NCBI GenBank assembly: GCA_018830005.1
Contig: JAHJTE010000001.1
Coordinates: 129,332-193,331 of the forward strand
Length of the DNA: 64,000 bases
Direction of reading: 5' to 3'
From: Candidatus Omnitrophota bacterium
GTDB lineage: Bacteria > Omnitrophota > Gorgyraeia > JAHJTE01
Within the stretch, counting starts at the first letter, position 1; every line of letters begins with the position of its first letter. Positions 28,441 through 59,008 of the stretch are shown here, piece after piece. The translations under genes and the position numbers were made by a program. Below the pieces are notes generated by a model. That model saw only the letters and a list, made by a program, of their open reading frames with translations. It made no database searches and was not told the origin of the DNA.

Positions 28441-28621
28441 TAATCTTTATTAAGGCTAAGATTAAATCTTGAAAAAGGCGAACTCTGGTGAAAGCCAGAG
28501 GGCATCCCGGAAGGGATCTTCCTAAGGGAAGGCAAAGCCATAAGGCCTAAAGTCCCCTAGATGTTTTAGGGACATGGCAGCTGGGTTACCAAGATATAAA
28601 CTATTTATAGAATATTATTTG

Positions 28622-32474: not shown

Positions 32475-32514
32475 GATGAGTTAATAGTCTTAGATCTTTA
32501 GACTACTTAAGATT

Positions 32515-33732: not shown

Positions 33733-33765
33733 TGCAGGGATGATCGCAGATAACCGGAGGTAAAT

Positions 33766-34657: not shown

Positions 34658-34663
34658 GATATA

Positions 34664-35775: not shown

Positions 35776-35785
35776 TGGGGTATTA

Positions 35786-36847: not shown

Positions 36848-36851
36848 TACA

Positions 36852-38300
36852 ATGAAGAGATTAAAAGCCAAGAAGAATGTCTTTAGCAGCGTCGAGCTGA
36901 ATCATGACTCGATTAAAATTGCTCAGGCAGAGTCAATTTTAGGAAAACCAAAATTTACCCATCTTTTTTACTCCCGCGTCGGCGACCTATCTAAGAAAGA
37001 AACTCAAGGCAAGATTAGGAGCCTCTTAAGCAAGGAGCAAATCGAAATTACAAATTGCCTTCTTTGTCTGCCTCGCCACAACGTAACAACCCGCTATCTT
37101 AAGCTGCCCAGTTTAGAAGAGCAAGAGATTGAAAAGATGCTTATGCTTCAAATCCCTAAATTGCTTCCTTATGCACCGGGAGAAATACTATCCAGTTACA
37201 AAAAGATTACTTCTGATAGTGAAGGTTATACTTATTGTATTGTGATTTTAGCCCAAGAAAATCTAGTAAGGCGTTATCTTTCGTTTCTTAAGGCCATAGG
37301 CATAGAGGCCTCAAGTGTTATTTTAAGTTCAGAAGTATGTGCTCACTGGCTAAGATTTATTAATAAAGTGAACATTAAAAATGAGACGATTGTTCTTATT
37401 GATGTCGATACGAGTAGTGTTGATATTATGATTATAAATGGGGGAGAACTAATTTTTACTCGTAGTTTTTCACGCGAATTACAAGATACGCAAGGTCTAT
37501 CCTGGCAGAATAAACTTCAGGATGAGATAAGGCGTACATTGGAGACTGCTGAAAAGGAAATAGGTAAGCAGAATATAACTCGCCTTATCTTAAGCGGCAG
37601 CCGTTTAGCCACAAAGGATACGGATAAGGCATTATCCGAAAATTTTTCTCGTCCTGTAGAAATTATCTCTAGACTTGAGGAGGAATGTATTAAGTCGCAG
37701 GCCTCAATAGCAAAGACCTTACGAGAATCAGATACCTCCTTTACCTCAGTTATGGGAGCTGCAGTTAGCAGGCAGAATTTTTCTATAAATCTTTTACCTG
37801 CGGATATTAAGGCCAGGCTAAATTGGCAAAGGCTAAAAAAGGAACGAGTCAAATGTATATCTTTAGTTCTATTAATTATTGCATTTTCTTTTGGTCTCTT
37901 TGTTAAACATATTTATGATAAACAGAGGCTCTTAAAAACATTAGAGCAGAAGATAGCAACATTATTGCCAGAAGCCACTATGAGAGAGAAGATAAGTTCA
38001 CGCCTGGAGATAATACGCGAGCAGTTAAAATCAAAGGTTTTTACCGCCCAGCTTATAAAAGAAATATACACTATCATTCCTGACAAGATATATTTAAATA
38101 GCCTTAGTATTCAAAAAGATGAGATTTTGATAATAAAGGGGCAGGCCGATAAATTATCTAATGTCTTTACTCTTGTAGGGGCCTTGGAAAAAAGTACATA
38201 TTTCCAAGACGTACGCGTGCGTTATGCTACGAAGAGAAAAGTCAAAACAGTTGAAATTACGGATTTTCAGATAGATTGTCCCCTAAAGGATAGCGAATAG
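36852..38300 (+). CDS. GspL-like assembly protein (PilM-type actin-like ATPase fold fused to PilN-type TM/periplasmic domain)
   Basis: ~320-aa cytoplasmic PilM-like region, TM helix (ISLVLLIIAFSFGLFV), ~130-aa periplasmic tail. Position between gspK and the gspM-like gene. Confidence 0.6.
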   Translation: MKRLKAKKNVFSSVELNHDSIKIAQAESILGKPKFTHLFYSRVGDLSKKETQGKIRSLLSKEQIEITNCLLCLPRHNVTTRYLKLPSLEEQEIEKMLMLQIPKLLPYAPGEILSSYKKITSDSEGYTYCIVILAQENLVRRYLSFLKAIGIEASSVILSSEVCAHWLRFINKVNIKNETIVLIDVDTSSVDIMIINGGELIFTRSFSRELQDTQGLSWQNKLQDEIRRTLETAEKEIGKQNITRLILSGSRLATKDTDKALSENFSRPVEIISRLEEECIKSQASIAKTLRESDTSFTSVMGAAVSRQNFSINLLPADIKARLNWQRLKKERVKCISLVLLIIAFSFGLFVKHIYDKQRLLKTLEQKIATLLPEATMREKISSRLEIIREQLKSKVFTAQLIKEIYTIIPDKIYLNSLSIQKDEILIIKGQADKLSNVFTLVGALEKSTYFQDVRVRYATKRKVKTVEITDFQIDCPLKDSE

Positions 38301-38312
38301 CTAGAGAATAAA

Positions 38313-38846
38313 ATGAAATTGATAAGTCAGCTGTCGAAAAGAGAAAAGAACATTTTTTATTTTACTATATTAATTATTGCCTTTAGCCTGATATTCAAAT
38401 TTATCTTGTTGCCTTTGTTTAATTTAAATCAGAGATTAACACAAGAGGTTAAAGCAAAAGAGATAGAACTGGTAAGGGCGAGGCGACTTTCTAAAGGCGG
38501 ATCAGTGCAAAGTCAATATGATGCATTCATTGCTGCGATTAAGATGGGTGAAAGCCAGGATTTGGAAATGGCCCGCTTACTTTCTGAAATAGAGTCAATA
38601 GCCAAAGAGGCAGGTGTGAATATCTTGAATTTAAGACCTCATGAGATAGAAGATAAGAGGTTTTATAAGAGATTTCTCATTGAATTAAAGTCTGAAGGAA
38701 CAAGCCAGCAAATTTTAAGATTTATATTTTCGTTAGAATCCTCACAACTCCTGTTGAGGATTGAGAAGTTTAACCTCAGCTCAAGAATCTCTAAGGGGAA
38801 TCTCCTTAATGCCACATTAACCGTCTCTAGAGTGGCAATTCCTTAA
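38313..38846 (+). CDS. GspM/PilO-like bitopic membrane protein
   Basis: N-terminal TM, coiled-coil region, C-terminal ferredoxin-like region. Gene order. Confidence 0.5.
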   Translation: MKLISQLSKREKNIFYFTILIIAFSLIFKFILLPLFNLNQRLTQEVKAKEIELVRARRLSKGGSVQSQYDAFIAAIKMGESQDLEMARLLSEIESIAKEAGVNILNLRPHEIEDKRFYKRFLIELKSEGTSQQILRFIFSLESSQLLLRIEKFNLSSRISKGNLLNATLTVSRVAIP

Positions 38847-38873
38847 ATGAAGTCAGAACCCATTAAAAATTAC

Positions 38874-38902
38874 TTGACAAGGTTTAATTTTTGCGGTAAA
38901 AT
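38874..38902 (+). promoter_or_regulatory. sigma70-like promoter TTGACA-17-TAAAAT internal to the T2SS cluster
   Basis: TTGACA 38874-38879, 17-nt spacer, TAAAAT 38897-38902. Followed by 5'-UTR hairpin CACTCTC-TAGG-TGGAGAGTG that contains the RBS of the merR gene. Confidence 0.55.
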
Positions 38903-38925
38903 CACTCTCTAGGTGGAGAGTGATT

Positions 38926-39168
38926 ATGGTTCGCAACATATATCTATTAAAAGACTTAGCAAGAATTACAGGCTATTCAACGCATACTATAAAATATTAT
39001 CTTAAAATTGGTCTTATTAAGGAGTTTGGCCGTAGCCCGGAAACTAACTTCCGTTATTTTACAGACAATACAGTTAAACTCCTAGGTTATATTCGGCAAC
39101 TGCGTAAAGAAAAAAAATCCATTGCGTGCATAAAAGAAATTATTAAACATAAAAAGTATACTAAGTAG
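38926..39168 (+). CDS. MerR-family HTH transcriptional regulator (small, DNA-binding domain only)
   Basis: LKDLARITGYSTHTIKYYLKIGLI...FRYFTDNTVKLLGYIRQLRKE matches the MerR HTH plus start of the coiled coil. ATG at 38926 follows GGAGAG RBS. Confidence 0.7.
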   Translation: MVRNIYLLKDLARITGYSTHTIKYYLKIGLIKEFGRSPETNFRYFTDNTVKLLGYIRQLRKEKKSIACIKEIIKHKKYTK

Positions 39169-39179
39169 CTAATAGAAAA

Positions 39180-40004
39180 ATGAGCTATTTTAGCCAACTT
39201 GGCCTAACCCAGGAACCATTTTCGACAAGCCCAGATCCTGAATTTCTTTATCATTCCCTAGGTCACGAGACTGCCTTGAGGCGGCTTGAGATCTCCATAC
39301 GCTTACGCAGAGGATTAAGTCTTATTGTCGGTGATATTGGCACAGGAAAGACCACTCTTAGCCGCACCCTCTTTCAGGTATTTAAGAATGAGCCAGACTT
39401 TATTTTTCACCTCATACTAGATCCTAATTACAAAACTGAATTTCAATTTCTTTCTTCATTGATTAAGATGTTGGGGATACACCCGAATTTTAAGTCCACG
39501 CTGGATTATAAGGAGTCACTAAAGGATTATCTATTCGCAAAAGGTGTAGAGGAAAACAAGACAATAATTTTATTAATTGATGAGGGGCAGAAGTTGACTC
39601 CGGATCACCTTGAGATTCTAAGGAGCCTGCTTAATTATGAAACCAATGAGTATAAACTATTACAACTTGTGATTATGTCTCAAATGGAACTCTTACCACG
39701 TTTAAGAAGGGCGAAGAATTTCACTGACCGTATAGCCTTAAAATACATAATTAATCCCCTGGGCGAGAACGAGACAAAACAGATGATTGAATTTAGATTA
39801 CATCAGGCGGGATTTGATAAAGGAGCCAGCCTCTTTAGTGAAGAGGCGATGCGATTAATCTATGAATATACTCAAGGTTATCCGCGCAAGATTACTCTTC
39901 TTTGCCATGACGCATTGGAACTTTTGATCATGAAAGAAAAGAGAATAGTAGATAGAGGAATTGTTGAAGAGATTATAAACAGAGAGTCTTTTTTAAATGG
40001 ATAG
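39180..40004 (+). CDS. ExeA/GspA-like AAA+ ATPase
   Basis: Walker A GDIGTGKTTL, Walker B LLIDEGQ. Typical ExeA size and its association with T2SS. Confidence 0.75.
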   Translation: MSYFSQLGLTQEPFSTSPDPEFLYHSLGHETALRRLEISIRLRRGLSLIVGDIGTGKTTLSRTLFQVFKNEPDFIFHLILDPNYKTEFQFLSSLIKMLGIHPNFKSTLDYKESLKDYLFAKGVEENKTIILLIDEGQKLTPDHLEILRSLLNYETNEYKLLQLVIMSQMELLPRLRRAKNFTDRIALKYIINPLGENETKQMIEFRLHQAGFDKGASLFSEEAMRLIYEYTQGYPRKITLLCHDALELLIMKEKRIVDRGIVEEIINRESFLNG

Positions 40005-40656
40005 ACCATCACCAGAAGAAAAATTATTGCGCCTGATTAAAGACGCTACTGGAAAGGGGGCCCGGCAGAAGAAAAAGCAGGCCGATGCACAGGAGAGCGT
40101 GCAGCCTTCGTCGCCAGAGCTTCCAGTCCGAACCCAAAAGTTGCGGACACATCAAAAGCGGATCAAGAAGCTCAAAACCCCTATTTTCAGCTTTAAATTT
40201 ATAAATAAGGTCTTGCATACTTTGCTTGTAATTATATTTTTATTTTTTGTTTTTAACATTATCTATAGCAGCAGAGAAATAAGCCAGGTAGAAAGAGAGG
40301 GATTTGAAAAGGATAAGGATTTAGAATTTGCTTCTTTTCCTGAAACCCTTGAGGGGGAATTTACTGACTATCTGTCAGCCGGCAGGAGGCGTGATATATT
40401 TACTTCCTCTGGCATGCAGATGATATCCGAAGGTTTAGCATCTTCTATATTTGATGCGGAGCAGTATGTTGGTAAGCTAAAATTATTAGGCATAATTTCA
40501 GGCATTAAGTCTCAAGCAATTGTTGAGGATCAGAACGAAAATAAAAATTACACCTTAAGTGTTGGTGATTATTTAAAGGAGTTCTTAGTTGAAGAAGTAG
40601 GAAAAGGTAAAGTGCTATTTGATTATAAGGGTGAGAAGTTTGATTTGTATCTATAA
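39997..40656 (+). CDS. bitopic protein in the ExeB/GspB position; C-terminal PilP/GspC-HR-like beta domain
   Basis: Basic N-terminus, single TM (VLHTLLVIIFLFFVF), C-terminal LKLLGIISG...QAIVED...YTLSVGDYL...KVLFDYKGEKFDL resembles the PilP/GspC secretin-binding beta-sandwich. Confidence 0.35.
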   Translation: MDRPSPEEKLLRLIKDATGKGARQKKKQADAQESVQPSSPELPVRTQKLRTHQKRIKKLKTPIFSFKFINKVLHTLLVIIFLFFVFNIIYSSREISQVEREGFEKDKDLEFASFPETLEGEFTDYLSAGRRRDIFTSSGMQMISEGLASSIFDAEQYVGKLKLLGIISGIKSQAIVEDQNENKNYTLSVGDYLKEFLVEEVGKGKVLFDYKGEKFDLYL

Positions 40657-40720
40657 ACGATTGTCTACCTGCGGACACGTTTGGCTAAGGTGGACATAAT
40701 AGATTAAATGGAGGTCCATT

Positions 40721-42646
40721 ATGATTAATACGAAAATATTCCCAATTTTGACATTAGTGATTTTTCTGATCTTTCCTTTTGGTGTCCTTGCCCAGCAAGA
40801 AGCAGAAGTTCAAGAAGACCCAATGAACAAGGAGCTGCAAATTAAAGAAGAGCCCTTGGATGAGACGATTTCTCTTGATATCAAGGGTATGGATATTGTA
40901 GATGTCCTAAAGACATTGGCTATGCGTTCAGGATTAAATATCGTCGTGGGTAAAAATGTAGTGGGAAAGGTCACCATCTTCTTAAAAGGTGTTATGCCGC
41001 GTCAGGCCCTTGACATAATCTTATTGGCTAATGGTCTTGCATACGAAGAGCAGGATGGAATTATTAGTGTAATGACTGACCGCGATTATGAAGCGCGCTT
41101 CGGTGAAAAATTTGCCGACAAAAAAGAGATTTCTGTCGTAAAGTTAAAATATGCTAAGGCAGCGAATTTGGTCCCTACCCTCAACCAGATGAAGTCTACG
41201 ATTGGTAAGGTTTTTGTCGATGAGGGATCTAATGTAGCTGTACTTATGGATACCCCAGAGAGATTATCGCAGATGCGCCAGATGTTACTTCATATTGACC
41301 GTCCAACCCAGACGCGCATATTTGATCTTAACTACTCAGATTCGGATAAGCTCCAGAATAAAATTCAAGAAATGCTAAGTAAAAACATAGGAACCATTAC
41401 GATTGATGAGCGCACTAATAAGATTATTGTCACTGATTATTCTGAAAAAATAGATAATATTGCAAAGATTATTAATGCCTTTGATTCGCGTACGCGTCAG
41501 GTGCTCATTGATTCTAAGATTGTTGAAATCACCTTAAGTGATAGGTTTCAACTTGGCATTGACTGGGAATATTGGATTGAAAAGAATTTCAAGGTTGGCA
41601 ATACCTTTCCTTTAAGCCTTACTACAGGCGGCACATTGACACTGGGTACTACTAGCGCGATAGACGAGGTAGGTGAATATAAAAGTGTTGTTGACATGCT
41701 AAGAACTATTGGAGACACGCGCGTTCTCTCAAGTCCCAGAGTAACGGCATTGAATAATGAGGAGGCAAAGATTCTTATCGGCACAAAAGAAGCCTATATT
41801 ACCCAGACTACTTCTCAATCGGGCACAGGAGCAACTATAACTGCCGAAAGCGTTAATTTTGTTGATGTGGGAGTTCAGCTTTACGTTACGCCCACTATCA
41901 ATCAAGAAGGTTTTGTGACAATGAAAATAAAGCCAGTAGTAAGCTCTGCTGTACGCACAGAGATAACAAGCGGCGATACAATAAGTGAAATACCTATTGT
42001 CTCTACTTCTGAGGCCGAGACATCGGTGATGGTTAAAGACGGCTCAACTATAATAATTGCTGGTTTAATTAAAGACGAGATAATTCAGACAATAAATAAA
42101 ATCCCGGTTTTAGGAGATATACCCATACTCGGCCACCTATTTAAAAACACGAGTGATGAGGTTAGAAAGAAGGAACTTGTAATATTTTTAACTCCTCATA
42201 TACTCTCTCCTTCCTTAGTTGAAACCAAGGCTAATGCCTTAGAATTTGAAGAAAGCATTAATACTTTAGAGCATTATAATAAACCTGAGCCAGACAAGAT
42301 ACGTTCGCTAAAGTCCGAGGAGAGCCAAGCAGAATTAAAGAACGATGAGGATTCCCTAGATTTAAGTTACGTTGGATATCTTACCCGCTTGCGCAAAATT
42401 ATAGCTGAGCAGGCAAGCAATATTGCCAGAGATGATTTTTCATCTGGGAAAGTAGAGATTTCTTTTGTTCTGGGTGCTGATGGTAAGTTGTTGGCAGATC
42501 CAGAGGTTGCCTTTGCCACAAGTGATGATTTAGGAGAGCTTGCCTTAAAGGCAGTACTTGCCTCAAGTCCTTTTCCGCCTTTTCCTGAAGATTTAAAAAG
42601 AAAACAAGAACGTTTTGATATTGTTATTTCTTATTCAGAAAAATAG
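40721..42646 (+). CDS. gspD: secretin (GspD/PilQ family) with C-terminal TonB-C-like domain
   Basis: Signal peptide, N0/N1-like domains, secretin core (VLIDSKIVEITL...IPVLGDIPILGHLFKNT...LVIFLTPHIL). Followed by ~100-aa tail GKVEISFVLGADGKLLADPEVAFATSDDLGELALKAVLASSPFPPFP matching the TonB C-terminal domain pattern. Confidence 0.8.
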   Translation: MINTKIFPILTLVIFLIFPFGVLAQQEAEVQEDPMNKELQIKEEPLDETISLDIKGMDIVDVLKTLAMRSGLNIVVGKNVVGKVTIFLKGVMPRQALDIILLANGLAYEEQDGIISVMTDRDYEARFGEKFADKKEISVVKLKYAKAANLVPTLNQMKSTIGKVFVDEGSNVAVLMDTPERLSQMRQMLLHIDRPTQTRIFDLNYSDSDKLQNKIQEMLSKNIGTITIDERTNKIIVTDYSEKIDNIAKIINAFDSRTRQVLIDSKIVEITLSDRFQLGIDWEYWIEKNFKVGNTFPLSLTTGGTLTLGTTSAIDEVGEYKSVVDMLRTIGDTRVLSSPRVTALNNEEAKILIGTKEAYITQTTSQSGTGATITAESVNFVDVGVQLYVTPTINQEGFVTMKIKPVVSSAVRTEITSGDTISEIPIVSTSEAETSVMVKDGSTIIIAGLIKDEIIQTINKIPVLGDIPILGHLFKNTSDEVRKKELVIFLTPHILSPSLVETKANALEFEESINTLEHYNKPEPDKIRSLKSEESQAELKNDEDSLDLSYVGYLTRLRKIIAEQASNIARDDFSSGKVEISFVLGADGKLLADPEVAFATSDDLGELALKAVLASSPFPPFPEDLKRKQERFDIVISYSEK

Positions 42647-47740: not shown

Positions 47741-47816
47741 GCCGAGGTAGCTCAAATGGTAGAGCGCGGGACTGAAAATCCCGGCGTAGCCGGTTCGATC
47801 CCGGCCCTCGGCACCA
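47741..47816 (+). tRNA. tRNA-Phe (GAA)
   Basis: Cloverleaf: acceptor GCCGAGG/CCTCGGC, anticodon loop CT-GAA-AA, T-loop GGTTCGATCC, encoded CCA. Downstream hairpin plus T-tract terminator. Confidence 0.85.
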
Positions 47817-47930
47817 TGTATATTTAAAAGGACTTAAAGAGTCCTTTTTTGTTTATAAGGCATGAAGTTTAGCAAGACCTTCATCCTTGTAGATAGTTGG
47901 AGTTTTTGATATAATCAAAGTCTGAAATTC

Positions 47931-48003
47931 TGCCGATGTAGCTCAGTTGGTAGAGCAGCGCTTTCGTAAAGCGCGGGTCGGAGGTTCGATCCCTCTCATC
48001 GGC
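47931..48003 (+). tRNA. tRNA-Thr (CGT)
   Basis: Acceptor GCCGATG/CATCGGC, anticodon stem-loop GCGCT-TTCGTAA-AGCGC, T-arm GGAGGTTCGATCCCTCT. No encoded CCA. Confidence 0.75.
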
Positions 48004-48046
48004 TTAAGTTATCCCTGAAAGCAAAATTCTTATAGGAAGATAGGCT

Positions 48047-49309
48047 GTGGCAAAATTTAGAGAAATTTTAAAAAATAAGAATTTTTTTCTCCTCTGGTTA
48101 AGCCAGATTATCTCCCAATTTGGAGACCGGCTTAATCAAATGGCGCTGATTGCTCTTATCTACAGCCGTGCTCCCGGCTCAACTTGGGAGATGGCAAAGC
48201 TGCTCTCCTTCACAATAATACCAGTATTTATAATTGGTCCGGTAGCTGGTGTTTATGTTGATAGATGGAGTAGGCAGCGCACCATGTTTGTCTGTGACTT
48301 AGCCCGTGCATGTCTAGTGTTTATAATTGCCTTTTATCTTTTGAATCTTAAGCCAATTTTTCCTATATACATTGCTATCTTTTTTGTATTTTCTGTTGGT
48401 AGATTCTTTGTTCCGGCTAAGATGTCTATAATACCGTCTTTGGTTAAAAAGAGTGATCTTCTTTTAGCTAATTCCCTAGTGCATACAACAGGCATGATTG
48501 CGGCAATGTTTGGATTAGGTATTGGGGGCCTATTAGTTTCTCCCCACATCTTGGGCGTAAAGGGTGGATTCTATTTAGATGCAGGCTCTTTCCTTGTCTC
48601 AGCTATAATGCTTTATTTTATTTCAGAAAATATTAGATTGAGAGTAACTAAAAGAGCCATTGCTGGGGTAAGCAAGGATATTGTGGAGGTTATAAAGAAA
48701 TCAATCTTAAGTGAGATAAAAGAGGCTTTCTATTTTTTGATTAAAAATCGTCAGACGCGTTATGTTGTTGCTGTGCTTTTTACATTGTGGTTAGCATTGG
48801 GTGCTGTCTATGTTGTCACCATTGTTTTTGTCCAGGAGGTCCTAGGTTCGATTACCTCTCAGTTAGGCCTTTTGGCTATCTGTTTAGGAGGAAGTTTGTT
48901 TGTCGGTTCCCTTATTTATGGCCGCCTGGGTCACAAATTGTCACATCTAAAGATTATATTTATCTCCTTTTCTTTAAGCGGCTTAGCACTCTTCCTATTT
49001 GCGATTTTGACATATACATTTAAGGAGTTTTGGATTGCTGCTATCTCTTGCTTTATGCTTGGGTTGACCCTTTCTCCGATTATGATTGCTTCAAATACGT
49101 TAGTACACAAATTAAGTGATAATAAAATGATGGGTAGAGTATTTAGTTCTCTGGAAGTTGTAATGCATATTGGTTTTCTCCTGGCAATGTTTATTAGCGC
49201 CTCTTTAGCTGAATTTTTAGGCAGATTCTGGATTTTGGTAGGAGCAGGTTTGGGTATTATTCTGTTTAGTATTTTTGGGCTTATAAGAGAATCAAGACGT
49301 CGAGCTTAA
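48047..49309 (+). CDS. MFS transporter
   Basis: 12 TM segments; MFS loop motif region (GPVAGVYVDRWSRQR). Confidence 0.8.
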   Translation: MAKFREILKNKNFFLLWLSQIISQFGDRLNQMALIALIYSRAPGSTWEMAKLLSFTIIPVFIIGPVAGVYVDRWSRQRTMFVCDLARACLVFIIAFYLLNLKPIFPIYIAIFFVFSVGRFFVPAKMSIIPSLVKKSDLLLANSLVHTTGMIAAMFGLGIGGLLVSPHILGVKGGFYLDAGSFLVSAIMLYFISENIRLRVTKRAIAGVSKDIVEVIKKSILSEIKEAFYFLIKNRQTRYVVAVLFTLWLALGAVYVVTIVFVQEVLGSITSQLGLLAICLGGSLFVGSLIYGRLGHKLSHLKIIFISFSLSGLALFLFAILTYTFKEFWIAAISCFMLGLTLSPIMIASNTLVHKLSDNKMMGRVFSSLEVVMHIGFLLAMFISASLAEFLGRFWILVGAGLGIILFSIFGLIRESRRRA

Positions 49310-49341: not shown

Positions 49342-50622
49342 ATGAAATACCATAAAGAACGTACTAAAGATATGCCGATTCAGGAGTTAGGTTTACCTGA
49401 AAGCGTTAGCATACCTCTAAGCCAGCATATTGGTAAAATCTGCCAACCCAGAGTTAAGGTAGGAGACAGGGTATTGCGGGGTGAACAAATAGCAAGTTGC
49501 GAATCTGGTTTTTTTGCGCCTATCCATTCTTCGATTTCTGGTGAGGTGACATCCATCAAGAATATGCCTCATCCAAGTAATGGAAGTTGCCTTAGTGTCC
49601 AGATAAAAAGCGATGCTAAAGATGAGGCAATAGAGGACATTCGTCGCAAGCCAAGGAGCCAAGAAGAAGTCGATAATTTAAGCAAAGATACCTTAGGCAA
49701 AATCATCCTTGATGCAGGTATTGTGGGTATGGGAGGTGCGGCATTTCCTACCCATATAAAGTTAAAACCTCCTAAGCCGGTTGATACCTTTATCTTAAAT
49801 GCAGCAGAGTGCGAGCCCTATTTGACAAGCGATTATCGGCTCATGATTGAGAATCCCGAAGGTATTATTTCCGGGATGAAATTGATGCTTAAGATCTTAG
49901 GTACGCGAAATGTTTATTTGGCTATTGAAGATAATAAGCCAGAGGCTATAAAAAAATTTAAGAGTCTGGCTAAAAATAATGATTTTAAAGTCTGTGTCTT
50001 AAAGACAGTTTATCCTCAAGGAGGCGAAAAGCAGCTTACGCAGAGTATACTAGCCAAGGAAGTTCCTGCTGGTGGGCTTCCTTTTGATATTGGAGTTGTA
50101 GTTCAGAATGTGGCAACTGCATTTGCAGTGTATGAGGCAGTTTATCTTCGAAAGCCGTTATATGAGAGGGTTGTTACTGTATGTGGTTCGGCATTAGCTA
50201 ATCCTAAGAATCTACGTGTAAGAATCGGTACCTCAATAAGAGAGCTTATTGCATTTTGTGCGCCTTTGCAGCAGGAAGTAAGAAAGATCATAATTGGCGG
50301 CCCAATGATGGGTATTGCCCAGAGCAGTATGGATGTGCCTATTATTAAAGCCAGCGGCGGAGTAATCCTGTTTTCAAAAAATGAGGTGAGTCTCAGGCAG
50401 GATCGTGTTTGCTGTCGCTGTGCACGTTGTGTTGACATTTGTCCAGCGCGTATTGAACCAGCAATGATAACAATCGCTATAGAAAAAGAAAAGTGGGATA
50501 TGCTGGCAGAGTTCAATATCTTTGATTGTATTGAGTGTGGACTGTGTAGTTACATCTGTCCGGCAAAACGCGATTTAGTCCATTTAATCCGATATGGAAA
50601 AGAAAGAGTTAAAGTTAGGTAG
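49342..50622 (+). CDS. rnfC: Rnf electron transport complex subunit C
   Basis: RnfC/NqrA-like N-terminus, NAD(H)/FMN-binding region, two 4Fe-4S ferredoxin motifs (CCRCARCVDICP, CIECGLCSYICP). Confidence 0.85.
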   Translation: MKYHKERTKDMPIQELGLPESVSIPLSQHIGKICQPRVKVGDRVLRGEQIASCESGFFAPIHSSISGEVTSIKNMPHPSNGSCLSVQIKSDAKDEAIEDIRRKPRSQEEVDNLSKDTLGKIILDAGIVGMGGAAFPTHIKLKPPKPVDTFILNAAECEPYLTSDYRLMIENPEGIISGMKLMLKILGTRNVYLAIEDNKPEAIKKFKSLAKNNDFKVCVLKTVYPQGGEKQLTQSILAKEVPAGGLPFDIGVVVQNVATAFAVYEAVYLRKPLYERVVTVCGSALANPKNLRVRIGTSIRELIAFCAPLQQEVRKIIIGGPMMGIAQSSMDVPIIKASGGVILFSKNEVSLRQDRVCCRCARCVDICPARIEPAMITIAIEKEKWDMLAEFNIFDCIECGLCSYICPAKRDLVHLIRYGKERVKVR

Positions 50623-51574
50623 GCTTGTTGTTTCAAGCAGCCCTCATATTGAGGAAGACGATCACATCATAAGAAGGATGTGGGCGACTTTTATTGCACT
50701 TCTCCCTGTGGGTTTTGCGGGAGTTTATATCTTTGGCATACACTCACTCTATGTAATATTAGTTTCTTTGGCAGCTGCAGCATTGACAGAGATTGCCTGT
50801 CAGAAAATGCAGCGGCGTAAAGTTACTGCCTCTGATGGAAGTGCCTTAATCTGTGGGCTTTTACTTGCTTACAACCTGCCGCCAGATGTCCCTGTCTGGA
50901 TACCTATTCTGGGTACAGTTTTTGCAGTAGGAGTGGGAAAGCATTTATTTGGAGGACTGGGATTTAATATATTTAATCCTGCTTTGGTTGGCCGGGCCTT
51001 TTTAATGACCTCCTGGCCAACGCATATGACAAGTTGGACTAATCCTCGTTTTGCTATCGATGCTGTGAGCTCTGCGACTCCTTTAACAATCCTTAAGGAA
51101 AAAGGCGTATTCTCTATATCAGAACTCCCTTTAAATTATTGGGATCTATTTATCGGCAACAGAGGTGGATGTATTGGTGAGGTTTGTGTTATTGCCCTTC
51201 TTGTTGGTGCAGCATACTTATTATATAAACAATATATATCCTGGCAAACACCCATATCCTTTATTTTGACAACAGGATTTTTAAGCTGGGTATTTTCCGG
51301 CTCAAGGTTGTTTAGTGGTGATTTTCTCCTTTCTATACTTTCCGGCGGATTGATTCTGGGTGCCTTTTTTATGGCTACAGATTATGTTACAGGGCCGCTT
51401 ACCAAAAAGGGTAAACTTATTTTTGGGCTTGGCTGCGGCCTGATTACTTTTCTTATTCGAAAATATGGCGGCTATCCGGAAGGCGTCTCTTACGCCATTC
51501 TTACTATGAATGCCTTTGTTCCGACGATCGATAGGTTTTGCAGGTTGAAACCCTATGGGTTTAAGAGGGGTTAA
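50594..51574 (+). CDS. rnfD: Rnf complex subunit D
   Basis: NqrB/RnfD polytopic membrane protein pattern including the FMN-attachment TGPL-type region. Operon position. Confidence 0.8.
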   Translation: MEKKELKLGRLVVSSSPHIEEDDHIIRRMWATFIALLPVGFAGVYIFGIHSLYVILVSLAAAALTEIACQKMQRRKVTASDGSALICGLLLAYNLPPDVPVWIPILGTVFAVGVGKHLFGGLGFNIFNPALVGRAFLMTSWPTHMTSWTNPRFAIDAVSSATPLTILKEKGVFSISELPLNYWDLFIGNRGGCIGEVCVIALLVGAAYLLYKQYISWQTPISFILTTGFLSWVFSGSRLFSGDFLLSILSGGLILGAFFMATDYVTGPLTKKGKLIFGLGCGLITFLIRKYGGYPEGVSYAILTMNAFVPTIDRFCRLKPYGFKRG

Positions 51575-51578
51575 TAAG

Positions 51579-52109
51579 ATGTTTCGTTATGCTTTGATAT
51601 TAATGACTATTTGCTTAGTAAGTGCATTTGTTTTGGCAGGTACTTACAAGGTTACTCATCCTGTTTACTTAGAACAGATGCTAGAAGAGGAAAAACAGGC
51701 CCTAGGAGAGATCCTGCCTAAGGCAGTGGATTTTAAAGAGAGACAATATTGTGATTCATCATATTTTGTAGGTAGAGATATTCAGGGAAAGACTGTAGGT
51801 TATATTATTAGAGCCGAGACAAACGGATATTCATCCATAATCAAGATGCTCGTCGGTATTGATGCTGAAGGTACAATTGTTGGCATCAAAATTTTATCTC
51901 AACAGGAAACGCCCGGATTAGGTGCTAAAATCACAGAGGTAAGAAGCGGCAAAAAAAAACCTTGGTTTATTCAACAGTTTAAAGGTAAAAATTTCAAAGA
52001 TTTAAATCTAGAAAATATTGAATCAATTACTGCAGCTACGATTACCAGCCAGGCAATTGTGGAAGGACTTAAAAAAGAAATTAGCAAAATTCTGCCTTAT
52101 TTAAAATGA
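51579..52109 (+). CDS. rnfG: Rnf complex subunit G
   Basis: N-terminal TM, FMN-binding domain with S(x)GAT-type motif (TAATITSQA). ATG at 51579 follows AGAGGGG RBS. Confidence 0.75.
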   Translation: MFRYALILMTICLVSAFVLAGTYKVTHPVYLEQMLEEEKQALGEILPKAVDFKERQYCDSSYFVGRDIQGKTVGYIIRAETNGYSSIIKMLVGIDAEGTIVGIKILSQQETPGLGAKITEVRSGKKKPWFIQQFKGKNFKDLNLENIESITAATITSQAIVEGLKKEISKILPYLK

Positions 52110-52732
52110 AGAGAACATTATTCCAGGAATTTTCAAAAGGCCTTAGCGTTAGCAATCCTGTATTCGGTCTTGTTTTGGGCCTATGTCCGGCCTTGGCAGT
52201 CTCTACCAGTGTAAGCAACGCCATAGGAATGAGTGCAGCAGTCATTTTTGTCTTAACTTGTTCAAACATTATAATCTCAAGTATCAAGAGATTAATCCCA
52301 AAAGAGATTCGCTTGCCTTGTTTTATCGTTGTAATTGCTACATTTGTTACTATTGTTGAATTAGTTCTACATGCATATTTTCCTAATCTGCGTACATCCC
52401 TGGGTATATTCGTGCCTTTAATCGTAGTTAACTGTATTATCTTAGGTCGGGCTGAGGCCTTTGCCTGCCGTAACACAGTTATGCGTTCGATGTTTGATGG
52501 CTTGGGAATGGGAGTGGGCTTTTCGTTTTCGCTTATTATTATTTCCGTGATAAGAGAGGTTTTAGGTACAGGGGAAATCTTAGGAATTCCTGTTCTAGCT
52601 AAAGCAGAGCCAGCTCTATTTTTTGTTTTAGCCCCAGGTGCTTTGTTTACGCTTGGAGTTTTGATTGCCATCTCCAACCATTTTCGCTATAAGAGAGGCC
52701 AAACAGTTAAACTCAAAGGGGGCTGTCATTGA
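52106..52732 (+). CDS. rnfE: Rnf complex subunit E
   Basis: NqrD/RnfE pattern (GLCPALAVSTS..., IVVNCIILGRAEAFA). Confidence 0.8.
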   Translation: MKRTLFQEFSKGLSVSNPVFGLVLGLCPALAVSTSVSNAIGMSAAVIFVLTCSNIIISSIKRLIPKEIRLPCFIVVIATFVTIVELVLHAYFPNLRTSLGIFVPLIVVNCIILGRAEAFACRNTVMRSMFDGLGMGVGFSFSLIIISVIREVLGTGEILGIPVLAKAEPALFFVLAPGALFTLGVLIAISNHFRYKRGQTVKLKGGCH

Positions 52733-53346
52733 TGGATGTTAATTTTAATAAAATCCTGACCATAATCATCAGCATGGTCTTTGTCAATAATTTTATCCTC
52801 TCTAAATTCTTAGGGCTTTGTCCTTTTATTGGCGTCTCACGAAGAACAAAACCAGCTCTTTCCATGGGCGCTGCAGTCATATTTGTTATGACCGGATCAA
52901 GTATTATTACCTGGCTCCTTTATCGTTATATCTTGGTTCCTTTTCATGTTGAATATTTGCGTACAGTATCTTTTATATTGGTTATTGCAACCTTCGTGCA
53001 ATTCGTGGAAATGTTTACGCTAAAAAATTTCCCAGCCCTTTATGAAACCCTGGGTATATATCTACCTTTAATTACTACTAACTGTGCAGTCTTAGGTGTA
53101 GCGGTATTAAATATCAATGATTTCTTTATGGAAGGCTATTCTGTTTTGGCGAGCTTTTCCTATTCTGTGATTCAGGCATTTTTTGCCGGAGTTGGTTTTA
53201 CATTAGCTCTATTTTTGATGAGTGCAATCAGAGAACGATTGGATTTAGCAGAAATACCCGAATGTTTTAAAGGTGTGCCAATTGCATTTATTGTTGCCTC
53301 ATTAATGAGCCTAGCGTTTATGGGGTTTACGGGGTTTAGGTTTTGA
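52729..53346 (+). CDS. rnfA: Rnf complex subunit A
   Basis: NqrE/RnfA pattern (LGLCPFIGVS..., ITTNCAVLGVA). Confidence 0.8.
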   Translation: MMDVNFNKILTIIISMVFVNNFILSKFLGLCPFIGVSRRTKPALSMGAAVIFVMTGSSIITWLLYRYILVPFHVEYLRTVSFILVIATFVQFVEMFTLKNFPALYETLGIYLPLITTNCAVLGVAVLNINDFFMEGYSVLASFSYSVIQAFFAGVGFTLALFLMSAIRERLDLAEIPECFKGVPIAFIVASLMSLAFMGFTGFRF

Positions 53347-53384
53347 TATTGAGCGATGCGCATGGAGTTAAAAAAGAGGTAGCC

Positions 53385-54602
53385 ATGAAAAGGAAAAAGA
53401 TACTTATATTATTTCTCACGTTTTTATTTGCCAGTTCATTGGTATTTGCCGAGCCAGAAAATAACCCAAGAACAAAGGTTGTTGTTGATGGAAATAGTTC
53501 GTTTGCACTAGCTCTTTATGATAACCTGAGGAAAGAGAAGGGTAATTTGTTTCTTTCTTCCTACAGCATTTCAACTGCCCTTGCTATGACCTATGCTGGC
53601 GCGCGCGGCAATACTGCAGCACAAATGGCTGATGTTCTGTGTTTCACATTGAGTCAGGAACAATTGCATCCTGCATTTGCTGATTTGCAGGCACAGCTGA
53701 ACGAGGTGCAAGCAAAGGGTAATATTGAATTGAACGTTGCAAATGCTTTATGGGCTCAAGAAGGCTACTCTTTTCTTAGTGATTTTCTTGGTTTGACAGA
53801 TAGGTATTATGAAGCAGCACTTTTCCACGTTAACTTCGAAAGAAATACCGAATCAGCGCGCCTAGAGATTAATGCCTGGGTAGAACAAAGAACCAAAGAC
53901 AAGATAAAGGAGTTAATAAAACAAGGACTCCTAAATTCCTTTACGCGTCTTGTATTAACAAATGCCATATATTTTAAGGGTGATTGGCTAAGTCAATTTG
54001 AAAAAGATCTTACAAAACAAGCTTTGTTTTGGTTATCTAGCGATAATTCTATCAAGGTGCCCATGATGACTCAGCGAGGGAAGTTCGGTTATATGCAAGA
54101 TAGTAACTTGCAGATTCTCGAATTGCCTTATAGCGGCAATGATCTTTCTATGATTATATTGCTTCCTAAAAGAAAAGATGATTTAGCTCAAGTTGAAGAG
54201 GCACTGAATGAAAGGAATTTGAATTTATGGACGCAACATCTCAAGACCAAAGAAGTTATAGTATTCTTGCCAAGGTTTAAGATGACTTCTGAATTTTCAC
54301 TGGCTGAAACGCTTGTCTTGATGGGTATGACTGACGCATTTGATCGGTCTGCTGATTTCTCTGGAATGACTGGCAAGAAAGATTTATATATTTCCAAGGT
54401 AATTCATAAGGCGTTTATAGCTGTTGATGAGGAAGGCACTGAGGCTGCGGCAGCAACAGCAGTAGTTATGAAGCGGCTTTCAGCTTCAAATGAGGAGCCT
54501 ACTGTCATATTTCGAGCTGACCATCCTTTCATATTCTTAATCCGCCATAATCCTTCTGGAAGCATTTTGTTTTTTGGCAGAGTGATTGATCCGACAGAGT
54601 GA
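53385..54602 (+). CDS. secreted serpin (serine protease inhibitor) family protein
   Basis: Signal peptide MKRKKILILFLTFLFASSLVFA. Serpin motifs NAIYFKGDW, hinge EEGTEAAAATAV, C-terminal FIFLIRHNPSGSILFFGRV. Predicted P2-P1 is Arg-Leu. Confidence 0.85.
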   Translation: MKRKKILILFLTFLFASSLVFAEPENNPRTKVVVDGNSSFALALYDNLRKEKGNLFLSSYSISTALAMTYAGARGNTAAQMADVLCFTLSQEQLHPAFADLQAQLNEVQAKGNIELNVANALWAQEGYSFLSDFLGLTDRYYEAALFHVNFERNTESARLEINAWVEQRTKDKIKELIKQGLLNSFTRLVLTNAIYFKGDWLSQFEKDLTKQALFWLSSDNSIKVPMMTQRGKFGYMQDSNLQILELPYSGNDLSMIILLPKRKDDLAQVEEALNERNLNLWTQHLKTKEVIVFLPRFKMTSEFSLAETLVLMGMTDAFDRSADFSGMTGKKDLYISKVIHKAFIAVDEEGTEAAAATAVVMKRLSASNEEPTVIFRADHPFIFLIRHNPSGSILFFGRVIDPTE

Positions 54603-54638
54603 AATAATAAGGAGCAAGTAATTTAATATAGAGATAGT

Positions 54639-55436
54639 ATGACGGAAATACTTTATCCAACACTAACCTTAGCTATATTAGGATTGGCCTTTGGGCTAGG
54701 TTTGGCCTTTGCATCCCGGAAGTTTTGCGTGGCGCACGATAAGCGCGTTGATCAAATTGTTGAAAAGCTTCCAGGCTCAAATTGTGGAGCCTGTGGTAGG
54801 GCTGGTTGTATACAGTTTGCGCAAAGTTTAATTCAGGGCACTTGTACAATTAACACTTGTCCTGTTACGTCTTTAGAAGGCAAAGAAGATATCGCAAAGA
54901 TGCTTGGTAAGGAATTAGAGGTTGAGGTAAAAAGAATAGCTATCCTGCATTGTTGCGGCGGAAATAAAGTTGACGAAAAAAGCGATTATGACGGCGTTAA
55001 AGATTGTATAGCAGCAAATTTGCTCAGCGGAGGTCAAAAGGCCTGCAGTTGGGGCTGTTTAGGCTTTGGAAGTTGTGTAGGCGCATGTCCTTTCGGAGCG
55101 ATTGCAATGGGCAATGAGGGCCTGCCTGTAATTGATGAGGCTAAATGCACTGCCTGCGGCAACTGCGTAAAAATTTGTCCTAAAGATTTATTTATCCTTG
55201 AAGCCGTTAATAAGGAATACTTTGTTGCCTGTTCCTCGCCTGATTTAGGGCGTGATGTGATGGCAGTATGCAAAGTTGGCTGCATTGCCTGTAAGAAGTG
55301 TCAGATTAACTGTCCAACTAAGGCAATAGAAGTAATTGACAATCTAGCAAAATTTAATTATGATAAATGCCGAAATATCGGAAAGTGTCTGGAGGTTTGT
55401 CCGACAAAGGTAATCAAGAAACGGAGGATTAAATGA
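54639..55436 (+). CDS. rnfB: Rnf complex subunit B (polyferredoxin)
   Basis: N-terminal TM, CxxCGxxGC N-terminal cluster, several CxxCxxCxxxCP ferredoxin motifs. Confidence 0.8.
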   Translation: MTEILYPTLTLAILGLAFGLGLAFASRKFCVAHDKRVDQIVEKLPGSNCGACGRAGCIQFAQSLIQGTCTINTCPVTSLEGKEDIAKMLGKELEVEVKRIAILHCCGGNKVDEKSDYDGVKDCIAANLLSGGQKACSWGCLGFGSCVGACPFGAIAMGNEGLPVIDEAKCTACGNCVKICPKDLFILEAVNKEYFVACSSPDLGRDVMAVCKVGCIACKKCQINCPTKAIEVIDNLAKFNYDKCRNIGKCLEVCPTKVIKKRRIK

Positions 55437-56032
55437 AGATAGCCGTATTCGCATCAGGCCGCGGCACTAATCTAGCTGCGATTATTAAGGCAAAGAAAAA
55501 AGGTATAATTAATGCTGAGATTAGCCTTGTTGTTTCTGATAATAAAAAGGCGCTTGCCTTAAAAAAGGCCCAACGCGCCGGGATAAAGGCAGTATTTATT
55601 GATCCTTTAAGGTTCCTATCAAAGCAAGAATTTGAAGCAGAGATTATTAAGGCGCTAGAGGCCGAAGGCATTGACTTGATAGCCTTGGCAGGGTTTATGC
55701 GCATATTGAGCACTGATTTTGTGATTCGTTTTAAAAATAAAATAATTAACATTCATCCGGCGATATTGCCTTCTTTTAAAGGCGCGCATGGTATAAATGA
55801 AGCCTTTGATTATGGCGTGAAGGTTACAGGGGTTACTGTTCATTTTGTTGATGAGGCCATGGATCATGGGCCGATTATATTGCAGAAGGCAGTTTCTGTT
55901 GATGAAAAAGACACGTTAGAGACCTTAGAGTCTAAAATCCATAAGGTTGAACATAAGATTTATCCAGAGGCTATTCGTTTATTTGTTGAAGGTCGCTTAA
56001 GAATAGAAGGCAGGAAGGTGTATATTGCTTAA
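55433..56032 (+). CDS. purN: phosphoribosylglycinamide formyltransferase
   Basis: IAVFASGRGTNL N-terminus, NIHPAILPSFKG catalytic motif, HFVDEAMDHGPII. Confidence 0.9.
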   Translation: MKIAVFASGRGTNLAAIIKAKKKGIINAEISLVVSDNKKALALKKAQRAGIKAVFIDPLRFLSKQEFEAEIIKALEAEGIDLIALAGFMRILSTDFVIRFKNKIINIHPAILPSFKGAHGINEAFDYGVKVTGVTVHFVDEAMDHGPIILQKAVSVDEKDTLETLESKIHKVEHKIYPEAIRLFVEGRLRIEGRKVYIA

Positions 56033-58291: not shown

Positions 58292-59008
58292 ATGAAAAAG
58301 ATACTTTATATTCTCGGATCAGTAGTATTAGGTTCGGTGATAATCTTATTTGCTAAATCGACTTTTGTTACTTTATCTATTGAGGATAAGATTGCTAAGA
58401 TTACTGGTCTTCCTTCAGAAGTTGTCAGTGTGGATTCAGGTTATTTTCTAACAATTAAAGGCCTAAAAATAAGAAATCCAGAAGGTTTTAGCGATGAGGC
58501 AATGATTGATATTTCCAGTATGACCATTGATGAGAATTTAGGCCAGATGGAACTTATAGTTGATGAGCTTTTAGTTGAAAAGAGTCCCACTGGCAGATTA
58601 AATATTGATTACCTAAACGCGGAGGAAGCAGGCGAACCAGATTTAAAGATAAATCGATTAAGGCTTCATATTAACAAGGTGAAATTTAAGGACGGCACTA
58701 AAGAAAAAGAATTTGATGTAGATATTCATAAAGAATATGTGAATTTGCCCCAGCCGCTTGATGTGGCTAAAATCATTATCGTAGAAGGCATAGGTGATAC
58801 TCCATTAGGCGATGATGAAGATATTGATACAGATGATATGGAAGATGATGTCGATGACGTTATTGATGACGGAGAGGTCATTGATGCTGACGGCGATGGC
58901 GATGGAGATGATGACGGTGATGGAGATGATGACGGTGATGGAGATGATGACGGTGATGGAGATGATGACGGGGTTGACCCGACTTGGCAAGGAGGATGGT
59001 ACGAGTAG
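58292..59008 (+). CDS. membrane-anchored hypothetical protein with poly-acidic Asp/Gly repeat tail
   Basis: N-terminal TM. C-terminal DGDGDGDDDGDGDDDGDGDDDGDGDDDG encoded by four tandem 18-bp repeats (58901-58972). Ends VDPTWQGGWYE. Confidence 0.45.
   Translation: MKKILYILGSVVLGSVIILFAKSTFVTLSIEDKIAKITGLPSEVVSVDSGYFLTIKGLKIRNPEGFSDEAMIDISSMTIDENLGQMELIVDELLVEKSPTGRLNIDYLNAEEAGEPDLKINRLRLHINKVKFKDGTKEKEFDVDIHKEYVNLPQPLDVAKIIIVEGIGDTPLGDDEDIDTDDMEDDVDDVIDDGEVIDADGDGDGDDDGDGDDDGDGDDDGDGDDDGVDPTWQGGWYE

Follow-up and report, generated by a model that had tools for sequence, protein, structure and literature searches.

The closest solved relative of the serpin described here is chloropin (PDB 8GXV), which Chlorobium limicola secretes. 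Chloropin has been proven to inhibit serine proteases covalently, and its P1 residue, Arg383, was determined experimentally by mass spectrometry (PMC10090351). Inhibitory serpins share the hinge consensus ExGTEAAAA while non-inhibitory serpins deviate at this position, and the same hinge is found in a group of bacterial serpins from the environment, described as "hub-like" and similar to those of chordate clade B (Spence et al. 2021, PMC8233489). The canonical rnfCDGEAB operon of anaerobes encodes the energy-conserving Rnf complex, a ferredoxin:NAD+ oxidoreductase, in six intact genes that have the same orientation and for the most part overlap or are separated by a few bases. These features are shared by the rnf locus in the DNA analysed, which comes from an uncultured Candidatus Omnitrophota bacterium (the whole 64-kb stretch, from here on referred to as the window). 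The two differ in that the adjacency of rnfA and rnfB is here split by a 1.2-kb non-Rnf gene encoding a serpin. In the literature searched, serpins were not connected with rnfB or with the biology of Omnitrophota in any paper; the serpin itself is ordinary and adds a member to a protein family already known.

The rnf locus and the serpin gene

When analysing the window with Pfam and NCBIfam models the gene order originally predicted, rnfC-D-G-E-A, serpin, rnfB and purN, was recovered at positions 49342–56032 of the forward strand. All genes below are on this strand and scores are given in bits. The six Rnf subunit genes are all present and intact, each scoring above its NCBIfam cutoff; rnfC (49342–50622; TIGR01945, 511, cutoff 246), rnfD (50594–51574; TIGR01946, 337, cutoff 207), rnfG (51555–52109; TIGR01947, 107, cutoff 102), rnfE (52106–52732; TIGR01948, 242, cutoff 213), rnfA (52732–53346; TIGR01943, 246, cutoff 229) and rnfB (54639–55436; TIGR01944, 85, cutoff 69). 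RnfA is full length compared with its relatives and is 88% identical to RnfA of the closest relative, locus L165, over residues 1–205, and RnfB, likewise full length when set against L165, is 79% identical to RnfB of the same locus over residues 3–262. What is broken is the contiguity of the operon, rnfA and rnfB being separated by the 1,218-nt serpin gene and two spacers. The gene purN (55433–56032; TIGR00639, 235) overlaps the stop of rnfB by 4 nt and this adjacency is kept in many Omnitrophota relatives. Upstream of rnfC is an MFS transporter gene (48047–49309; Pfam MFS_1, E=3.5e-36), which is found in the same position in all Omnitrophota relatives with contigs reaching there (L003–L011 and L085), and directly upstream of this MFS-rnf array lies a tRNA-Thr(CGT) (47932–48004, ARAGORN; Rfam tRNA, 67.8) together with a TGnTATAAT-like extended -10 box at about 47905–47913. 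The tRNA-Thr gene probably marks the start of a co-directional transcription unit. In one other assembly, L163, the sequence departs from that of the window at 47931, upstream of tRNA-Thr.

The serpin gene (53385–54602) starts with an ATG at 53385, ends with a TGA at 54600–54602 and encodes 405 amino acids. Its match to the Pfam family Serpin, PF00079 (MEROPS I4; 425.6 bits, cutoff 27, model positions 2–370 of 370), is far beyond chance as it extends across the whole model with E=2.5e-127. The start differs between gene callers, a TTG at 53343 (419 aa; JGI and ENA) or the ATG at 53385 (405 aa; NCBI). The former overlaps the stop of rnfA and the latter is favoured since it carries a Shine-Dalgarno sequence (AGAGG, 53375–53379, 5 nt before the ATG) and agrees with the N-termini of serpin homologues; the mature protein would be identical with either start.

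The spacer between rnfA and the serpin gene is 38 nt (53347–53384) and makes up the 5' margin of the insert, and 36 nt (54603–54638) separate the serpin stop from the ATG of rnfB. The last ~17 nt of the second spacer (TTTAATATAGAGATAGT) are similar to the 10-nt rnfA-rnfB spacer of L165 (TTAAATAGCT), a resemblance that places the end of the insert probably near 54621. Neither spacer contains a terminator-like site or a stable hairpin (folding z = +0.19 upstream and +0.36 downstream), and the description first given of this gene, with its ATG about 40 nt past the rnfA stop, a ribosome-binding site of its own and nothing like a terminator in between, therefore stands. A sequence AAGGAG trails the serpin gene at 54609–54614, 24 nt from the rnfB ATG and too distant to serve rnfB; when a counterpart was sought downstream of homologous serpins there was no match. 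Inside the serpin gene a terminator-like site (54122–54140; 6-bp stem with three GC pairs and a weak T-run) was treated as chance since such sites are not clearly enriched regionally (14 found versus 8.2 ± 2.8 expected).

The shared strand, the short spacers and the absence from them of hairpins and of terminator- and promoter-like sites together point strongly to co-transcription of the serpin gene with rnf. No σ70-like site was found on the forward strand between 53412 and 55336, though the σ70 model may not fit Omnitrophota promoters, and rnfB would accordingly be predicted to rely on transcription through the serpin gene, barring an undetected promoter. An internal promoter for the serpin gene or rnfB, which would speak against simple read-through, is possible.

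Features of the predicted serpin protein

The hinge of the protein, EEGTEAAAAT (residues 349–358), fits the inhibitory consensus at P17-P9 and opens a reactive-centre loop at residues 349–372 (54429–54500). Counting 17 residues from P17 gives Arg364-Leu365-Ser366 as P2-P1-P1' and M-K-R-L/S as the predicted P4-P1', with the codon of the putative P1 residue at 54477–54479. The hinge and loop proposed in the original prediction are consequently intact, with canonical length up to Leu365/Ser366, and the Arg-Leu proposed for P2-P1 agrees with an alignment in which Leu365 falls, ungapped, on P1 Arg383 of chloropin. The hinge motif is common to nearly all of the 120 serpin homologues listed while the distal loop is hypervariable.

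A search of PDB sequences gave chloropin as the best match (E=4.7e-99, residues 37–403) among 166 serpin sequences matching at E≤1e-40. The AF2 model (mean pLDDT 89.3, pTM 0.82) represents the loop-inserted state and hence not the native metastable form, and in Foldseek it superposes with cleaved LEI, MENT and antichymotrypsin at a target-normalised TM-score of 0.93–0.95 and an rmsd of 1.1–1.5 Å. Its superposition on loop-inserted serpins gives 1.2–1.5 Å. By eye, the N-terminus, MKRKKILILFLTFLFASSLVFA followed by EP, divides into n-, h- and c-regions as a Sec signal peptide does (MKRKK, ILILFLTFLFASSLV and FA/EP; residues 1–22, codons 53385–53450) and has no lipobox cysteine. Residues 1–25 have a pLDDT below 50, the Pfam domain begins at residue 36, and signal-peptide-like N-termini occur across the homologues, some of them with a lipobox. 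This reading by eye and the similar N-termini of the homologues are compatible with the signal peptide that had been proposed, and the serpin is predicted to be exported by Sec. The window also contains a secretin and T2SS/T4P-like machine genes, which indicate that an outer membrane is present, and together with Sec export this suggests that the serpin would work in the periplasm or extracellularly.

By its sequence features the protein appears to be a canonical inhibitory serpin, and its activity is predicted to be that of a suicide-substrate inhibitor. A serine protease would cut the loop at Leu365-Ser366, whereupon the loop would enter beta-sheet A and the protease would be trapped as an acyl-enzyme. 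Leucine at P1 suggests chymotrypsin-, subtilisin- or elastase-like targets, and the adjoining Lys363-Arg364 could also engage trypsin-like enzymes. No serine protease that could be a candidate target is encoded within the 64-kb window; when proteases were sought there, only an M23 metallopeptidase (1521–2039) and a PDZ protein (27733–28440) were found. A serpin fold without inhibitory function, with the protein serving instead as a chaperone, binding or storage protein in the manner of ovalbumin or HSP47, would suit the top Foldseek match by E-value, which is an ovalbumin. It is however unlikely, as the hinge matches the inhibitory consensus exactly (PMC8233489), the closest solved relative is a demonstrated inhibitor, and inhibitors tracking different proteases would be expected to keep their scaffold while the distal loop varies strongly, as it does in this family.

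The rnfA-rnfB junction in relatives and the origin of the insert

The rnfA-rnfB junction was compared with that of relatives collected as RnfA matches listed from genome and metagenome scans (best 74–75% identical) and by an RnfB protein search, the latter contributing three closer relatives, L165, L166 and L167. In 148 of 160 related loci listed rnfA is directly followed by rnfB (HSP gap 2–386 nt), and the other 12 are cut by a contig end or differ in gene order, none of them with a serpin. Among the matches listed there are 163 related rnf loci, 151 of which span the junction, and a serpin is present at the junction in none of these. It is missing in L165, whose spacer is the one of 10 nt mentioned above (RnfA 88% and RnfB 79% identical), in L166 (82% and 74%) and in L167 (84% and 70%) as well as in each of the 14 Omnitrophota loci that are moderately related, and a tblastn search for serpin remnants was negative at every locus, the long spacers of L086 and L167 included. 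The junction of L167 holds an unrelated 105-aa hydrophobic ORF and other relatives have hairpin-bearing spacers. The insertion is real and lineage-specific, confined to one species-level lineage among the relatives listed, and is best read as postdating the split from the closest sampled relatives. An ancient conserved arrangement, which the original prediction had set against an insertion, was thus found at none of the 151 loci, and the synteny it proposed to compare, with rnfA directly before rnfB, is the usual one.

The nearest serpin homologues among the matches listed are 55–64% identical, and in the five contexts read for the closest homologues none is near rnf, the neighbours being DUF4442, ABC transporter or PilZ genes. 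The homologue search gave at least 8000 scored candidates, all significant; the view that bacterial serpins are uncommon is accordingly true of cultured genomes (PMC8233489) and fails for metagenomes. The homologues that carry a taxon name belong to Deltaproteobacteria, Cloacimonetes, Bacteroidota, Aminicenantes and Anaerolineae, a patchy distribution across phyla, and distant serpin genes (≤42% identity) are present on 107 plasmid records, which suggests that the family is mobile. The GC content of the gene (0.394), its GC3 (0.355) and its codon score (-1.095) match the averages of the window (0.392, 0.352 and -1.099) and so give no compositional support for a recent foreign origin; the inspection of GC and codon usage that the original prediction proposed showed no signal of horizontal transfer. 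Judging from this composition the gene could have been relocated from another place in the genome, or its residence may have been long enough for amelioration. A mobile element or genomic island was considered and rejected, as the gene is not flanked by direct or inverted repeats, no integrase or transposase lies near it (its neighbours are rnf genes) and its composition is host-like. An insertion mechanism has thus left no mark at the site, which counts against the reading as an insertion.

The explanation we prefer, with a probability of about three in four, is that the serpin is a single-gene passenger insertion, co-transcribed by read-through and without evidence of a functional tie to Rnf. 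A single serpin gene of ~1.27 kb would have entered the short rnfA-rnfB spacer of one Omnitrophota lineage, bringing its own ribosome-binding site but no recognisable promoter or terminator, and for this reason it would most likely be a passenger on the tRNA-Thr/MFS/rnfCDGEA...rnfB/purN message. An insert that terminated transcription at the junction would cut off rnfB and be selected against. The position within the operon would supply steady serpin expression and reflect no functional partnership with Rnf; of the link to the Rnf operon claimed at the outset the positional part stands, while its restriction to one species-level lineage and the lack of evidence for a functional tie leave the rest of it unsupported.

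The Rnf complex has periplasm-facing parts. A serpin functionally coupled to it might shield those parts, e.g. the FMN domain of RnfG, or other envelope proteins, or might control a protease taking part in the maturation or turnover of Rnf. The tight packing of the gene, with its 38- and 36-nt spacers and no terminator, its predicted export and an arrangement stable enough for host-like codon composition are all compatible with such coupling, but it is improbable given that the arrangement is seen in one species-level lineage and at none of the 151 junction-spanning loci listed, three of them with RnfA 82–88% identical. None of the five closest-homologue contexts read is near rnf, the literature search gave no paper naming both serpin and rnfB, and the unrelated inserts at the junction in relatives (the ORF of L167 and the hairpin spacers) fit better with a permissive site. 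With a similarly small chance the serpin may have been recruited, i.e. wired into a constitutive energy operon for permanent protection of the envelope against serine proteases of host or prey, covering the periplasmic face of Rnf, pili and adhesins of a host-dependent or predatory nanobacterium. If true, protease defence would here be tied to core bioenergetics at the level of the operon, a kind of coupling that would be new.

It is very unlikely that the serpin gene was ancestral at the junction in an Omnitrophota clade and then lost from the sampled relatives. The host-like composition suggests long residence, and the junction is variable with leftover non-coding sequence in several relatives, but many independent and precise losses would be needed to leave 14 moderate and three close relatives without the gene, one of them with a spacer of 10 nt, and without a remnant detectable by tblastn at any locus.

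The rnfA-serpin-rnfB junction is 100% identical over 10,365 nt in a Logan single-run assembly of SRR6514730 and is the same in the NCBI MAG GCA_043815545.1, with 0 mismatches to the window over 16 kb, both of these assemblies stemming from the same population as the window. Database records further list the identical serpin protein for contigs as long as 848 kb (NCBI/Logan) and 552 kb (ENA). A chimeric contig joining a serpin fragment into the rnf operon, an error the original prediction had allowed for and which the metagenome-assembly source and the disagreement of L163 upstream of 47931 might suggest, is therefore extremely improbable, as the junctions are identical in both assemblies, both breakpoints would have needed to hit a spacer only some tens of bases long while sparing rnfA and rnfB, and the GC content and codon use of the serpin gene match the host mean.

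Read as a passenger insertion, the locus offers a clean case from nature in which a gene, foreign or relocated, persists inside an essential multi-subunit operon, a survival that would depend on its own ribosome-binding site and the lack of a terminator, and it presents the rnfA-rnfB junction in Omnitrophota as a permissive and recurrently modified spot. Its value is that of an annotated curiosity which opens no long-standing question, although it may be a handle on the use of protease inhibitors in putatively predatory or parasitic nanobacteria.

Comparison with known operons and serpins

Most Firmicutes and one Omnitrophota clade have the order C-D-G-E-A-B seen here, and the serpin gene interrupts it at the A-B adjacency kept in 148 of the 160 loci compared. 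Compared with chloropin, the serpin has the same type of hinge and, like chloropin, an N-terminal signal peptide, here a putative one; they differ at P1, Arg in chloropin and Leu here, which predicts a chymotrypsin-/subtilisin-like rather than a thrombin-/kallikrein-like specificity, and the P' side of the window serpin (SASNEEPTVI) is acidic and one residue longer. For chloropin there is no report of a location in an rnf operon.

With the hub-like environmental serpins the protein shares the hinge, and its putative signal peptide would correspond to the N-terminal transport peptide present in most members, and its matches to clade B structures in PDB are strong (leukocyte elastase inhibitor or SERPINB1, SERPINB3/B4 and PAI-2). 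The JGI label on its homologues is likewise "serpin B". It adds a serpin with a predicted P1-Leu loop from Omnitrophota to the many environmental bacterial serpins of puzzling function, and is the sole member seen inside an rnf operon among the homologue contexts read. Alpha-1-antichymotrypsin (SERPINA3), a eukaryotic plasma protein of ~33–35% identity, has the same suicide-substrate fold and its cleaved structures superpose on the model at 1.1–1.4 Å. Its P1 residue is Leu, the one predicted here, and the likeness in target class between the two serpins is predicted from P1 alone.

Position of the serpin gene in the rnf operon

The serpin gene (Pfam PF00079) is located at 53385-54602 (+), where it had been predicted, and assignment of its neighbours with Pfam/NCBIfam gave the expected order, with an MFS transporter gene (48047-49309), rnfC (49342-50622), rnfD (50594-51574), rnfG (51555-52109), rnfE (52106-52732) and rnfA (52732-53346) upstream and rnfB (54639-55436) and purN (55433-56032) downstream, all on the + strand. 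The MFS gene is closely preceded by a tRNA-Phe (47741-47816) and a tRNA-Thr (47932-48004). Each of the six Rnf subfamily models exceeds its curated cutoff in the window, showing a complete operon, but its contiguity is broken at the A-B junction. Between the rnfA stop and the serpin ATG lie 38 nt with AGAGG five bases 5' of the ATG, close to the ~40 nt and own ribosome binding site of the original prediction, and 36 nt separate the serpin stop from the rnfB ATG. The proposed lack of an intervening terminator also held, as consensus scans revealed no terminator-like sites in either spacer and folding of the two spacers was no stronger than that of shuffled sequence (z = +0.19 and +0.36); nor were any sigma-70-like sites found on the + strand at 53412-55336. 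The + strand carries 49 of the 50 long ORFs of the 64-kb window, which makes the serpin gene part of a long series of genes with one direction. The one long ORF of the minus strand encodes a Thi4-family thiazole synthase (12797-13570, -) and has a TPP riboswitch upstream (13640-13753, -, 62.5 bits).

The best-supported account of the serpin is a passenger insertion in the rnf operon. The gene would be transcribed by read-through from the upstream promoter of the operon, with translation starting from a Shine-Dalgarno site of its own, and the product would be exported by Sec to the periplasm or beyond; a secretin and T2SS/T4P components are encoded at 31035-42646. The missing terminator could be taken as a sign of functional coupling to Rnf but is more convincingly explained as a requirement for the insertion to persist, since rnfB lies downstream, and such coupling is improbable. 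A strong Shine-Dalgarno-like AAGGAG (54609-54614), 24 nt 5' of the rnfB ATG and too distant to serve rnfB, is followed by no ORF, has no match 3' of those homologous serpins read, and may be a remnant of the next gene of the donor locus.

Elsewhere in the window two matches to the c-di-GMP-I riboswitch (cutoff 35 bits) were identified. One (22036-22125, +, 47.9 bits) closely precedes the gene for a giant PKD/beta-helix surface protein of 1,834 aa (22226-27730) and the other (28467-28593, +, 36.3 bits) precedes that for a GH2-like protein bearing a dockerin (28972-30579), suggesting that c-di-GMP controls surface or adhesion proteins.

Reactive loop and putative function of the serpin

The Pfam Serpin profile PF00079 was matched end to end (E=2.5e-127, profile 2-370/370), and profile, fold, hinge and loop length all place the protein in the family. 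Its N-terminus (MKRKKILILFLTFLFASSLVFA|EP) resembles a Sec signal peptide and has no lipobox cysteine; the AlphaFold model shows residues 1-25 as disordered, and residue 36 is the first of the Pfam domain. The start differs by caller, JGI/ENA using a TTG at 53343 that overlaps the rnfA stop (419 aa) and NCBI the ATG (405 aa), of which the ATG has a Shine-Dalgarno site and agrees with the N-termini of the homologues.

The hinge EEGTEAAAAT (residues 349-358) is intact as predicted and agrees fully with ExGTEAAAA, the consensus given for inhibitory serpins by Spence et al. 2021 (PMC8233489). The motif is present in nearly all of the best 120 homologues listed while the next 13-18 residues are hypervariable, a combination typical of inhibitory serpins. 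Among solved structures the best match is chloropin from Chlorobium limicola (PDB 8GXV, E=4.7e-99), a secreted bacterial serpin that inhibits serine proteases and for which mass spectrometry located P1 at Arg383 (PMC10090351). A gap-free alignment of both reactive loops up to and including P1 places the predicted P3-P1' of the window serpin at Lys363, Arg364 (P2), Leu365 (P1) and Ser366 (P1'), the same P2-P1 Arg-Leu as first proposed. The sequence MKRLS at P4-P1' is shared with P0002, the nearest non-identical homologue (64% identity). An AlphaFold2 model (mean pLDDT 89.3, pTM 0.82) can be superposed on serpins in the cleaved, loop-inserted form at 1.1-1.5 Å with a target-normalised TM of 0.93-0.95; this relaxed-state model, silent on metastability, confirms the serpin fold and a loop compatible with insertion. 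Once exported, the serpin would inhibit serine proteases preferring P1 Leu (chymotrypsin-, subtilisin- or elastase-like) by the suicide-substrate mechanism, and Lys-Arg at P3-P2 may widen its range, while a non-inhibitory serpin is improbable. According to one proposal (PMC10066038), Omnitrophota are nanobacteria that live mostly as predators or parasites and have a conserved Rnf complex, and one may speculate that a constitutive inhibitor guards the envelope from proteases of the host, the prey or the cell itself.

The rnfA-rnfB junction in related genomes

The synteny was studied in 160 loci around RnfA relatives among the matches listed (80 species-representative genomes and 80 metagenomes), annotated by tblastn; the genome of this species was itself absent from both RnfA relative listings, and the closest proteins were added via an RnfB search. 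To the question whether rnfA is elsewhere directly followed by rnfB, the answer was yes in 148 loci (HSP gap of 2-386 nt with a median of 57), the remaining 12 being cut by contig ends or having rnfB ahead of rnfC, and none of the 160 contains a serpin. Fourteen of them (L003-L011, L083-L087) are Omnitrophota-type with RnfA 60-75% identical, and these keep the MFS-rnf...rnfB-purN frame wherever contigs extend far enough. Neither a serpin nor a serpin remnant was found in the three closest relatives: L165 (RnfA 88%, RnfB 79%) has a spacer of 10 nt (TTAAATAGCT), L166 (82% and 74%) one of 63 nt, and L167 (84% and 70%) one of about 610 nt that holds an unrelated hydrophobic ORF of 105 aa (2468-2785). 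It follows that the insertion took place after this lineage had separated from that of L165, and to date it is restricted to a single population at species level; an ancestral arrangement lost in the relatives is highly improbable. The end of the serpin-rnfB spacer (TTTAATATAGAGATAGT) resembles the entire spacer of L165, suggesting an insert from roughly 53347 to about 54621.

The rnfA-rnfB spacers vary in Omnitrophota (L006, L007, L083, L086, L087, L166, L167), many genomes having 0-10 nt, several relatives 63-130 nt with strong GC-rich hairpins and L086 about 300 nt of non-coding DNA, and a motif, GCG[T/G]AGCGAAAAATTTACCCTGA...GTCGAAGGGT, is common to L166 and L167. The junction behaves as a permissive site. 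Two rnf orders occur, C-D-G-E-A-B (the window, L006, L007, L009, L085, L165-L167) and C-G-D-E-A-B (L003-L005, L008, L010, L011, L084, L087). Between rnfB and purN, genes for a thioredoxin and for a further protein of ~400 aa were read in L006, L007 and L009, and L085 has a ~1.6-kb gap.

An assembly artefact or chimera, the error that could have undone the original prediction, is very unlikely, bordering on negligible, because the rnfA-serpin-rnfB-purN order recurs in both further assemblies read, L164 (Logan, run SRR6514730; 100% identical over 10,365 nt) and L163 (GCA_043815545.1; over 16 kb, 0 mismatches and a single indel of 36 nt, in repeat number), and the composition of the serpin gene sits on the window means (GC 0.394 vs 0.392, GC3 0.355 vs 0.352, synonymous-codon score -1.095 vs -1.099). 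The identical protein is found on contigs of 184,570 nt (JGI), 552 kb (ENA) and up to 848 kb (NCBI/Logan), its records MBU2540458.1 and MFH1492072.1 are labelled 'Candidatus Omnitrophota bacterium' at NCBI, and relatives of RnfA and RnfB are overwhelmingly Candidatus Omnitrophota among the matches listed.

The indel lies in a perfect 18-nt tandem repeat (GATGGAGATGATGACGGT x3.9, 58901-58971) inside ORF 58292-59008, encoding an acidic (DGDDDG)n stretch; L163 is two units shorter, so copy number varies within the population. L163 equals the window from tRNA-Thr (47932) onward, its upstream part (1-1107) being unrelated with a TauE-family gene in place of the tRNA-Phe and SNase-like gene of the window, and this divergence at 47931 reflects either a rearrangement between strains at the tRNA or a chimera in one of the assemblies.

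Origin of the serpin gene

A protein search gave at least 8,000 significant serpin matches, so this type of serpin is abundant in metagenomes from the environment. Among the matches listed, the best outside the identical cluster is 64% identical with a smooth fall to 55% at rank 120, and labelled homologues belong to Deltaproteobacteria, Desulfobacterium, Cloacimonetes, Bacteroidota, Aminicenantes and Anaerolineae. In five close-homologue contexts the serpin is located beside DUF4442, ABC transporter, transglutaminase-core or PilZ genes, with no rnf or protease gene next to it; in L168 and L169/L170, from other taxa, serpin homologues directly follow PilZ genes. Distant serpins (<=42% identity) on 107 plasmid and 2 phage records show that members of the family do move with mobile DNA. 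The insertion itself was found to be marked by neither repeats nor an integrase nor an anomalous composition, and horizontal acquisition followed by amelioration and relocation within the genome are both plausible origins.

The finding is real and its original interpretation correct. The literature searched held nothing linking serpins with rnfB or treating serpins in Omnitrophota biology, and the gene described here represents a further member of a well-populated family in an unusual, lineage-specific genomic position.
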